A stretch of DNA of 64,000 nucleotides, from assembly GCF_028714215.1 (NCBI RefSeq), contig NZ_JAQTMS010000024.1:6156-70155 (forward strand). The letters run 5' to 3'. The DNA is from Rhodoferax sp. GTDB taxonomy: Bacteria > Pseudomonadota > Gammaproteobacteria > Burkholderiales > Burkholderiaceae_C. The notes under the pieces were generated by a model that saw only the letters and a list, made by a program, of their open reading frames with translations, searched no databases and had not been told where the DNA came from. A program made the translations under genes and the position numbers. Positions 3,613 to 18,468 of this stretch are shown here, piece after piece; position 1 is the stretch's first letter; each line of letters begins with the position of its first letter.

Positions 3613-3700
3613 CCCACCCCGTTGCGGGCTCACTTCGTGTAGCCGCCTCCCCCTCAAGGGGCAACACCGGTGGCCCGGCAAAGCCGGTTCCACGGTGTTT
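3613..3700. repeat. Multi-hairpin REP/MITE-like intergenic element
   Basis: Nested inverted repeats GCGGGCT-CACTTCGTG-TAGCCGC, CCCCTCAAGGGG and AACACCGGTGG...CCACGGTGTT fill the rdgB-hemW gap. Confidence 0.7.
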
Positions 3701-15271: not shown

Positions 15272-18200
15272 TCAGCCCAGGCGTTTCAACTGCTCCCTGA
15301 GCTTGGCCAGCGTCGCCTCAAAATCGGCCACCCGCTTGCGCTCCTGCTCGATCACGGCGGCAGGCGCTTTGGCCACAAAAGCCTGATTGCTCAATTTGCC
15401 GCCGGCTCGGGCAATTTCGCCTTCCAGACGGCTGGCCTCCTTGCCCAGGCGAAGTTTTTCGGCGGCTACGTCGATTTCCATGTGCAGGCAGATGCGGGCA
15501 CCGCCCACAACCGCCACCGGCGCTGCCTGCGCCGCGGCGGACCAGGCCGCCTCGTCGTCAAAGACACGTACTTCATTGAGCTTGGCCAGCGCCTGCAAGA
15601 CCGGCGCCGATTGGTTCAAAAAGTCGGCTTCAGCCGCCTGGCCGGCCATCACGAACAGCGGTAGCCGGGTCGCCGGCGAGACGCTCATCTCGCCGCGCAG
15701 ATTGCGGCAGGCATCCACCAGCGCTTTGAGTTTTACGACCTGGGCTATGGCCGCTTCGTCGATCCGCTCGGGCTGCGTCTGAGGGTAGGCCGCAATCGAC
15801 ACCGACGCGCCGCCACGACCGGCCACCGGCGCCACTTTTTGCCACAACTCCTCGGTGACGAAGGGAATCACCGGGTGCGCCAGCCGCAGTATGGTTTCCA
15901 GCGTGCGAATCAGCGTGCGGCGGGTGGCGCGTTTTTGCGCCTCGTTGCCTTGCTGAATCTGCACCTTGGCGATTTCCAGGTACCAGTCGCAGAACTCGTT
16001 CCAGATGAAGTCGTAGATTGTGTTGGCGACGTTGTCGAGACGGTATTCTTCAAAGCCCTGGCTGATATCGGCTTCGACGCGCTGCAACAGCGAGACGATC
16101 CAGCGGTCTGCCGCGCTGAAGTCCAGGTAGCCATGGGCGCTGCCGCCGACGGCGCATTCTTCCTGGGTGTGCTCGTTCAAGCCGCAATCCTGGCCTTCGC
16201 AGTTCATCAGCACAAAGCGGCTGGCGTTCCACAGCTTGTTGCAGAAATTGCGATAACCCTCGCAGCGTTTGGTATCGAAGTTGATGTTGCGGCCCAGTGA
16301 CGCCAAAGAGGCGAAGGTGAACCTCAGCGCGTCGGCGCCAAAGGCCGGAATGCCGGCCGGGAATTCTTTCTCGGTGTTCTTGCGCACCTGCGGCGCGGTC
16401 TCGGGTTTGCGCAGACCTTCGGAGCGCTTCACCAGCAATTCAGGCAACGCAATGCCGTCGATCAGATCCACCGGGTCCAGCACATTGCCCTCGGACTTGC
16501 TCATCTTGTGGCCTTGCGCATCGCGCACCAGACCATGGATGTAGACGTGCTTGAATGGCACCTGGCCGGTGAAGTGCGTGGTCATCATGATCATCCGGGC
16601 GACCCAGAAGAAGATGATGTCGTAGCCGGTGACCAGCACGCTGCTGGGTAGGTAGAGGTTGTAGTCGCTCAGCTTGCCCGCTGTTGCCCCGCGCTGAGAC
16701 AAGGCGGACTCGTTCGCACTCATACTCGCTGCGCTCGCCAAATCGTCGCGTCCGAGCCCGCCTTGCCCCAGCGCTGCGTTGTTGCTTTCGGGCCAGCCCA
16801 TGGTGCTGAAGGGAACTAGCGCGGAGGAGTACCAGGTGTCCAGCACGTCTTCGTCGCGCTTGAGCGTCTTGCCTGGAGCCTGGGCCTGCGCTTCGGCTTC
16901 GTTCCGCGCCACGTAGACCTGGCCGTTTTCGTCGTACCAGGCCGGAATCTGATGGCCCCACCAGAGCTGGCGGCTGATGCACCAGTCCTGGATGTTGTTC
17001 ATCCACTGGTTGTAGGTATTGACCCAGTTCTCGGGCACGAACTTCACCGCGCCGGATTGGACCGCGTCAATGGCTTTTTGCGCAATGGATCTGCCATCGA
17101 AGGCTGGACAATTTTCCGACGGGCCGCCCCTAGGAAAATTAGCCCCCTCGGGGGGCAGCGAGGACACGCCAGTGCCGAGCGTGGGGGCCTTGTTCATGGC
17201 GACGAACCACTGGTCGGTCAGCATCGGCTCTATCACCTGGCCAGTGCGCGCGCAGCGCGGCACCATCAGCTTGTGTTTCTTGATCTCCACCAGCAAGCCC
17301 AGCGCTTCGAGATCGGCCACCACTTTCTTGCGCGCCACAAAGCGGTCCAGCCCCAGATAGGCTGCGGGTGCCTGGTCGTTGATTTTGGCGTCCAGCGTCA
17401 ACACGCCGATCAAGGGCAGCTTGTGGCGCTGGCCGACGGCATAGTCATTCTGGTCATGCGCCGGCGTCACCTTCACCACACCGGTGCCGAAGGCCTGGTC
17501 GACGTAGTCGTCGGCAATGATGGGGATGGCGCGGTTGCACAGGGGCAGGGTGACCTGCTTGCCGATCAGGTGCCGGTAGCGCTCGTCTTCCGGGTGCACC
17601 ATCGCCGCCACGTCGCCCAGCATGGTTTCCGGGCGCGTCGTGGCCACCACCAGGCCGGCCGCCATTTCACCGTTCACCAATTGCGGACCGTCGGCAAACG
17701 GATAGCGGATGTGCCACAGAAAGCCGTCCTCTTCTTCGCTTTCCACTTCCAGGTCGCTGACCGCGCTTTGCAGCACCGGGTCCCAGTTGACCAAGCGTTT
17801 GCCACGGTAGATCAGGCCTTGTTCATAGAGCTGGACAAAAGTCTCGGTCACCGTTTTGGACAGATCTTCGTCCATGGTGAAGTATTCGCGGCTCCAGTCG
17901 ACGCTGTCGCCCATGCGGCGCATCTGGGTCGTGATGGTGTTGCCGGACTGCTCTTTCCATTCCCACACCTTGGCCACGAAGTTCTTGCGGCCCAGGTCGT
18001 GGCGGCTGATTTTTTGTTCCTGCAACTGGCGTTCGACGACGATTTGCGTGGCAATGCCGGCGTGGTCGGTGCCGGGGATCCAGACCGTGTTGGCGCCGCG
18101 CATGCGGTGGTGGCGCGTCAGCGAGTCCATGATGGTCTGGTTGAAGGCGTGCCCCATGTGCAGGGTGCCGGTGACGTTGGGCGGCGGTAACTGGATGGAA

Positions 18201-18358
18201 AAAGACGGCGCGCCCGATTTGGGCTGGCCTGTGCCGCGATAGCCGGCCTGCGCGTAGCCGCGGCGCTCCCATTCGGGTCCCCATTGGGCCTCGATGGCGG
18301 CGGGTTCGAAAGATTTGGAAAGGCTGTTGAGGCCCGGTTGTTGTTGTGCTTCGTTCAT
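15272..18358 (-). CDS. valS: Valine--tRNA ligase carrying two in-frame palindromic insertions
   Basis: [31 protein letters not shown]-terminal coiled coil; about 1028 aa from ATG 18358. Confidence 0.97.
16691..16774 (-). repeat. 84-bp hairpin element inserted in frame in valS
   Basis: 22-bp arms GCGCTGGGGCAAGGCGGGCTCG / CGAGTCCGCCTTGTCTCAGCGC (three G-U pairs); length is 28 codons. Confidence 0.75.
17110..17188 (-). repeat. REP-like element inserted in frame in valS ([26 protein letters not shown])
   Basis: GCCCCCACGCTC...CCCCCCGAGGGGG...AATTTTCC-N-GGAAAATT nested palindromes inside the coding sequence. Confidence 0.75.
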
Positions 18359-18468
18359 GTTGCCTTTGATTTTATTCGGGAATAAGATTTTCATAGGCAA
18401 AAGCAATTCAAGGCATTGATGCAGTCAATTAGACCGAGCTCGCCTTCCCGGCTAAGCTCTACCCGTCT

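Follow-up and report, generated by a model that had tools for sequence, protein, structure and literature searches.

An in-frame copy of the Beta-proteobacterial repeat element in the valyl-tRNA synthetase gene of a Rhodoferax species

The valyl-tRNA synthetase gene (valS) of a Rhodoferax species (assembly GCF_028714215.1) lies in a stretch of 64,000 nt of contig NZ_JAQTMS010000024.1, hereafter the window, and carries at positions 17110–17188 of that window a copy of the Beta-proteobacterial repeat element (BRE). We put at roughly 85% the probability that this copy was inserted in valS after the split from the sequenced congeners and that it is, in all likelihood, a tolerated passenger without a function of its own. 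An earlier prediction, made from the sequence of the window, had described a palindromic repeat translated in frame at this place, and its coordinates proved exact to the base, giving an element of 79 nt. As the BRE family and its intragenic copies were published in 2011, the present finding is a refinement and not a discovery, and its novelty is lower than the original prediction assumed because the valS insert belongs to that known family. The features of the gene are as follows.

15272–18406, minus strand: valS, valyl-tRNA synthetase (open reading frame listing; Pfam tRNA-synt_1, Anticodon_1 and Val_tRNA-synt_C)
17110–17188, minus strand: BRE copy of 79 nt (88.3 bits against the family covariance model; 85% identity to a published B. 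pertussis BRE)
17158–17180, minus strand: hairpin 1 of the element, GC..GGCAC-loop-GTG(T)CC..GC, stem covarying across copies
17142–17156, minus strand: hairpin 2, GCCCCCC-GA-GGGGGC, nearly invariant across the family
17110–17140, minus strand: hairpin 3, stem AATTTTCC/GGAAAATT, conserved apex TAGGGGCGGCCCGTCG, stem differing between subfamilies
17090–17109, minus strand: remnant of the native VSxxDPTGK loop, read as CPAFDGR (DNA comparison with 15 congeners)

The element in valS and the family to which it belongs

The valS open reading frame (ORF) is intact and encodes 1044 amino acids from an upstream TTG at 18406, the likely start being the ATG at 18358. Its product combines a class I synthetase core, an anticodon-binding domain and a C-terminal tRNA-binding arm as recognized by Pfam, and both the HMGH and the KMSKS motifs were found in it. 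No second ValS was present among the matches within the genome itself, the remaining ones being distant class I paralogues, and valS at 15272–18406 is the sole valyl-tRNA synthetase gene of the genome. The 79-nt element starts in codon phase 0 at residue 407 (counted from the TTG at 18406) and is read in frame as 26 residues, 407–432, plus 1 nt, so that in the sequence 33 residues, 26 from the element followed by CPAFDGR, lie between WFVAMNK and SIAQKAID. Its G+C content is 68% compared with 61.9% for the genome, and four of its six reading frames are open; a typical copy of the family is free of stop codons in all six. The match of the valS copy to the family covariance model (E = 1.2e-14) is far beyond chance. 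Rfam holds no family for the element, as examined over the whole window at gathering thresholds and over 17000–17300 at E values up to 10.

BRE was named by Hot et al. (2011; BMC Genomics 12:207, PMC3110155), who described it as a repeat of 75–91 bp with a high G+C content, forming tandem arrays that vary in number, in Bordetella, Polaromonas JS666 (29 copies), Delftia, Rhodoferax and Acidovorax, with a patchy distribution in Alcaligenaceae, Comamonadaceae and Rhodocyclaceae. They counted matches above 70% identity and already reported copies that overlap gene ends or lie wholly within coding sequences. Delihas (2011; PMC3184786) also lists BRE, with about nine protein genes holding internal copies. 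The B. pertussis BRE at 2208359–2208448 (List S1 of Hot et al., reverse-complemented) matches the valS copy at the identity listed above over 75 nt, and the blocks follow one another in the same order. Judged by its sequence, the valS element is thus a member of BRE, a published family and not a new one, and it agrees with BRE in sequence family, size, high G+C, tandem arrays, patchy distribution and genic copies. The original prediction had supposed a repeat family peculiar to this lineage, which it is not, as BRE is widespread in Burkholderiales. Measured against these two papers, what differs here is the host genome and the host gene, valS, both of which are new. We saw in them no description of three-hairpin covariation, of a restriction of in-frame copies to two of six reading frames, of start-codon bridge ORFs, of a nested 77-nt element, of frame repair by a flanking deletion or of a second hairpin insert in valS, all of which are described below.

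Copies of the element are numerous in this genome. By nhmmer we obtained 52 matches, 41 of them near full length, the covariance model gave 42 copies and blastn-short dozens of near-copies, and pooling blastn, nhmmer and the covariance model yields ~40 full-length and ~12 partial copies. The genome-wide count of intergenic versus in-frame copies that the prediction had called for stands at ~42 copies, with about a quarter of the full-length ones in frame within genes. In the coordinates used below, G000 is this genome, other G numbers are congeners, C numbers give contig positions and L numbers are loci. Over its 5′ 50 nt the valS copy is identical to that at C51:23615, its 3′ half matches the copy at C8:13623 at 96% identity, and such near-identity points to recent copying. 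Tandem copies occur at C92:2075–2229 and also in relatives. In the window itself, the covariance model finds only one true BRE copy, that in valS, its second-best match there being the element at 3616–3689 described below.

The family consensus consists of (G/A)CCCCCACGCT, hairpin 1, CGCT-GCCCCCC-GA-GGGGGC (hairpin 2) and hairpin 3, the conserved apex of which is cTTGGGGCGGCCCGGCG. Both palindromes named in the original prediction were recovered, GCCCCCC-GA-GGGGGC as hairpin 2 and AATTTTCC...GGAAAATT as the stem of hairpin 3. Pairing was assessed in an alignment of 67 copies drawn from this genome and many other genera, where standard pairs occupy 93.8% of cells compared with 81.8% in shuffles and no more than 57% once the partners were slid, and where 188 compensatory cells were found against 69 expected. 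All five inner pairs of hairpin 1 change on both sides (in 26 of the 67 sequences, for instance, A-U has become G-C), hairpin 3 shows compensatory changes in seven of its ten pairs, the T-G to A-T switch in the subfamily of the valS copy being itself compensatory, and for the two hairpins together 12 of the 15 pairs change on both sides. This covariation is strong, and the BRE hairpins are under structural selection.

The empty site in relatives and the repair of the reading frame

To compare the insertion site, we took ValS from 30 related genomes and aligned the sequences, the site being covered by 26 of them (15 congeners and 11 genomes of other families). All 15 congeners have a K-VSxxDPTGK-S loop at this place, the 11 genomes of other families have a loop of equal or shorter length, and the peptide of the element is absent from ValS in all 26. 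The idea that the peptide is a native, conserved ValS feature of the clade is refuted by this alignment, and its DNA is moreover a dispersed repeat, so we give that explanation practically no credence. In the original prediction, conservation of the peptide in related ValS and a lack of other DNA copies had been named as the outcomes that would count against it; neither was what we found.

At the DNA level the relatives read AAG GTC AGC CCG ATT GAC CCG ACT GGC AAA TCC, whereas this genome has AAG, the 79-nt element, GTCCAGCCTTCGATGGCAGA and TCC. The element was inserted between AAG and GTC, and the native loop, 27 nt in relatives, is 20 nt here, 7 nt having been lost beside the insertion; the net gain is 72 nt, or 24 codons. 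The frame of valS is restored because this net loss of 7 nt in the adjacent native loop offsets the insertion of 79 nt. On the evidence of the alignment, the valS insert is a lineage-specific indel, as predicted from the expectation that relatives would lack it; the clean indel of ~26 amino acids that had also been expected was not found, since 79 nt came in, 7 nt were lost and 24 codons were gained. T. thermophilus ValRS (1GAX) has no residues in the alignment at the BRE site, nor at the site of a second insert in valS described below, and ValS length therefore varies at both.

This arrangement also bears on the possibility that a repeat was misplaced inside valS during assembly. Repeats are classic misassembly sites, and the genome is a draft of 116 contigs with an estimated contamination of 3.5%. 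However, valS continues collinearly and in one frame on either side, the element begins on a codon boundary and is accompanied by a specific loss of 7 nt that restores the frame, and independent assemblies of other species have in-frame BREs in ValS, UvrD and PurL, all of which makes an assembly artefact very improbable.

We favour an explanation in which BRE, a non-autonomous, G+C-rich repeat of ~78 nt and three hairpins, would have entered a segment of valS that codes for a surface loop, after the lineage had split from its sequenced congeners. Survival of the gene would then be accounted for by several circumstances: a typical BRE copy is free of stops in six frames, and four frames are open in the valS copy; the net loss of 7 nt in the adjacent loop, following or accompanying the insertion, restored the frame; the peptide encoded in the frame used is rich in Gly, Pro, Ser and Ala; and the site is one of natural ValS length variation. 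The ValS protein probably carries the peptide and still works, as far as the gene sequence allows one to judge, and the inserted loop would be expected to be exposed at the surface of ValS.

Several points weigh against the view of the insert as a tolerated passenger that arrived by insertion. The valS insert was seen in a draft assembly, and neither terminal inverted repeats nor a target-site duplication are visible at the valS site (AAG, element, GTC). No candidate transposase for BRE was found. An AlphaFold model of ValS, built on a 17-sequence alignment, has a mean pLDDT of 58.6 and a pTM of 0.37, which is too poor for the placement or exposure of the loop to be read from it; the model shows the insert as coil, with flanks that are likewise of low confidence. 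Lastly, the element is very highly conserved in sequence across families, perhaps because it serves some function in the cell, and a view of it purely as a passenger does not account for this.

Copies in other genes, at start codons and in other genomes

The valS copy is not an isolated case. At least 11 of the 41 full-length copies in this genome, about a quarter, lie in frame within genes, the hosts being ValS, KdpB, PurL, ComEC, UvrD, an SNF2 helicase, a MetX-like hydrolase, an FAS1-type hydratase, acetoacetyl-CoA synthetase, Edd and ThrC. The ten genic copies besides that in valS all lie in long ORFs with normal codon-position G+C and with Pfam domains flanking or spanning the insert, and the copies in these unrelated genes occur in both orientations. 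In other genera, 23 of about 100 sampled copies were gene-internal by a criterion based on third-codon-position G+C (GC3). The behaviour predicted by analogy with the Rickettsia palindromic elements (RPE), i.e. in-frame insertion into coding genes, is thus borne out by the 11 in-frame genic copies, by the Pfam domains around the ten inserts checked and by the dozens of copies in the genome.

Only a few of the available frames are used. Taking together the 11 in-frame copies of this genome and the 23 of other genera, the hairpin 1–2 half gives sense APTL..LPPEGA in 8 cases, antisense APSGGS..HEVASVG in 22 and antisense PLGGQ.. in the other 4, and none of these 34 copies uses the arginine- and cysteine-rich frames, although those frames are open. 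From the sequences, this narrow usage looks like selection for harmless loop peptides. The in-frame copies also speak to whether the segment might be removed from the transcript or the protein in the manner of an intron or intein, leaving a mature ValS without it. A structured insertion within an essential gene is the only support for such removal, which we consider highly improbable, since the Rfam search described above gave no match even at E = 10, 26 residues are far too few for an intein, and other genes hold the element in both orientations with the frame always open, which implies translation.

Filled and empty sites could be compared at several other loci. The UvrD BRE occupies one and the same site in G000, G002 and G004 and is missing from the seven other congeners readable there, with a net gain of 78 nt and no target-site duplication. 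The PurL BRE is present in G000 and G002, and G004 retains only an SVGAP remnant. In G005 the PurL linker (L155) holds, in frame, a different palindromic repeat (peptide ...VRPELVEGLASPVRRAHDGPGSARTEP...) where G000 and G002 hold BRE, and the presence of different repeats in one linker makes it a hotspot for several repeat families. The junction between mreD and mrdA is empty in G002 (CTATGACGG, ATGA overlap), contains one copy in G000 and two tandem copies in G004, and in G005 has a copy from a different BRE subfamily. We observed in addition that the G002 assembly includes two mrdA copies (C79:4397–4846 and C15:751–1200; ~82% identity to the query), and that G002 shares the PurL and UvrD insertions with G000, yet its mreD–mrdA site is empty; this assembly may be a mixture of two strains. 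In G015 and G016, ValS has a BRE in its other variable loop (site 2), after STMGWP. These two site-2 copies (L006 and L008 respectively) have an identical, unusual hairpin 1, and their hairpin 3 stems differ, being AATTTTCC/GGAAAATT in one species and CCTCGCGCC/GGCGCTC in the other, a pattern that suggests stem replacement or gene conversion following a single insertion.

Among 18 congeners the covariance model finds no BRE in three genomes and at most 38, 31, 20 and 14 copies in the richest, compared with 42 in this genome. Across the order, matches were obtained in 30 of 301 genomes and 21 of 145 genera, and an exact-pattern scan gave more than 120 loci in Polaromonas, Rhodoferax, Hydrogenophaga, Variovorax, Ramlibacter, Acidovorax, Achromobacter, Bordetella, Burkholderia, Thiobacillus and others. 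BRE is patchy yet widespread across Burkholderiales. From its distribution we infer that it is or was mobile. A link to RAYT/IS200 transposases was rejected, as Y1 genes are not flanked by BRE and their presence is independent of copy number: the two Y1_Tnp genes of this genome have no BRE within 1.5 kb, every congener, the three that lack BRE among them, has a Y1 transposase homologue of ~240 amino acids, and the patchy occurrence of IS200-type genes among congeners is uncorrelated with BRE copy number. A miniature transposable element with inverted repeats (MITE) was likewise rejected, because GCCCCCACGC... at one end is no inverted copy of the 3′ arm of the hairpin-3 stem at the other, every inverted repeat lying internally, and because target-site duplications are lacking at valS and UvrD.

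Many copies outside genes stand in a particular relation to start codons. An ATG immediately precedes the element in 29 of 139 copies, compared with ~1% expected, and the bases upstream of this ATG are purine-rich and resemble a ribosome-binding site. From the ATG, a bridge ORF of 26–37 codons often runs through the BRE to a stop within an ATGA shared with the start of a real downstream gene; here, the downstream genes are mrdA, a short-chain dehydrogenase/reductase (SDR) gene, a C26 peptidase-like gene and an ABC permease gene. At mreD–mrdA in G000 (C6:9648–9721), for example, an ORF of 29 codons ends in ATGA on the mrdA start, and similar bridge ORFs are found at C8:13624–13700, C9:57147–57221 and C21:39679–39752 as well as at L194 and L195. 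At such start-codon sites the element has ATG(A) on either side, through duplication, as a target motif or as an outcome of selection, and the enrichment of start codons may reflect target choice or selection.

Some BREs themselves harbour an insertion. A structured element of 77 nt (TACAGGTCGATGCC...GGGCATCAG) is present seven times in the genome, always at one point of BRE hairpin 2 and never alone, its hosts being BREs of different subfamilies. In the UvrD BRE of G004 (L175) it is nested within the element and in frame. The copies in this genome are as follows.

C72:8866, C1:68951, C21:22828, C21:43423, C70:13726, C19:33068 and C2:151959: nested 77-nt element

As a tentative generalization, for which we would claim appreciably less than even odds, BRE might be a translated element with a preference for landing at start codons or ATGA overlaps, where it would persist as a bridge ORF coupling downstream translation; being stop-free, and giving harmless Gly/Pro/Ser/Ala peptides in two of six frames, it could survive in essential enzymes, so that genic copies would be the survivors of frame selection and the 77-nt element a second-order parasite.

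Two other repeats of the window complete this picture.

16682–16777, minus strand: insert 2 of valS, a near-perfect hairpin of ~96 nt read in frame as 33 residues, after STMGWPE
3616–3689, plus strand: sister-family element, intergenic, with a three-hairpin layout (18.6 bits, E = 0.09 against the BRE model)

Insert 2 is common to six congeners, with folding energies of −58.6 kcal/mol here and −52 to −74 kcal/mol across six species, and its stems vary yet stay complementary (GCGCTGGGGCAAGGCGGG... here compared with CTCAGGACGGAGCCCG... in L004). That it might be another BRE was rejected, as it does not match the BRE model and no other copy was found in this genome. The original prediction had likened the valS repeat to an intergenic element at 3613–3700, and the two do share the same three-hairpin layout; the match to the BRE model is weak, however, and the intergenic element belongs to a sister family. 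This family has five copies (3616–3689 of the window, C3:160603, C93:4716, C16:46725 and C22:59341), in which the head, hairpin 1 and hairpin 2 are laid out as in BRE and the apex of hairpin 3 differs (GGCCCGGCAAAGCCGG). The copy in the window lies directly after a gene ending ...GGCATGA.

The insert might alternatively have been co-opted, either because the loop offers ValS a new interaction or regulatory surface, or because the hairpins in the mRNA (about −36 kcal/mol) tune translation or mRNA stability. The structural selection on the family hairpins, the high conservation of the element across families and the fact that ValS of the genus repeatedly carries palindromic inserts at two loops are in keeping with such a role. 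Set against these are the presence of the site-1 insert in one species only, the occurrence of the same element in at least ten unrelated genes in both orientations, and a frame repair by small deletion that resembles damage control and not design; we therefore think co-option unlikely and prefer to see the valS copy as a passenger.

Comparison with other repeats and significance

The classic case of palindromic inserts in frame is that of the RPE (Ogata et al. 2000, 2002, in the accounts given in PMC10969869 and PMC3733652). Like BRE, these elements enter unrelated housekeeping genes in frame, where they contribute a short conserved peptide that is compatible with folding, and genic copies make up a large share of both. 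RPE are ~100–150 bp long and belong to Alphaproteobacteria, and in sequence, size and lineage they are unrelated to BRE; some of their families have a CGTC end tag, which BRE lacks. Because lineage and size differ, the resemblance is one of behaviour only.

Intragenic repetitive extragenic palindromes (REPs) have been described from Xanthomonas, Erythrobacter and Sphingopyxis, where they lie in tRNA synthetase genes (Di Nocera et al. 2013; PMC3733652). REPs and their composite bacterial interspersed mosaic elements (BIMEs), which go with RAYT transposases, share with BRE the G+C-rich hairpins, an occasional in-frame position in DNA-repair or synthetase genes and the receipt of nested insertions. 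In contrast, the REP palindrome has 20–40 nt and a GTAG/CGTC head, whereas BRE has ~78 nt, three hairpins, a start of (G/A)CCCCCACGC and no such head; BRE dimers are direct and not inverted, and no BRE stands beside a Y1 transposase gene.

Mycobacterial interspersed repetitive units (MIRU; Supply et al. 1997) are intercistronic repeats in mycobacterial operons (PMC3184786). Intergenic BREs are likewise often found between operon genes, with a small ORF that overlaps the stop and start of the neighbours, and both repeats behave as variable-number tandem repeats; the small-ORF overlap holds for many intergenic BREs and not for the valS copy. In sequence and lineage MIRU and BRE are unrelated. 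Insertion in frame within enzymes is not known of MIRUs.

The valS copy provides a well-documented example of an essential aminoacyl-tRNA synthetase that tolerates a selfish insert of 24 codons, with the repair of the frame still visible in the DNA. With BRE genic in roughly a quarter of its copies, the RPE paradigm is extended to free-living Burkholderiales. BRE also has practical consequences, as its copies break draft assemblies and affect annotation through N-terminal extensions, spurious small ORFs and odd loops, so that gene calls are inflated or distorted. Finally, the restriction of reading frames and the bridge ORFs offer testable handles on how bacteria accommodate structured repeats in translated regions.

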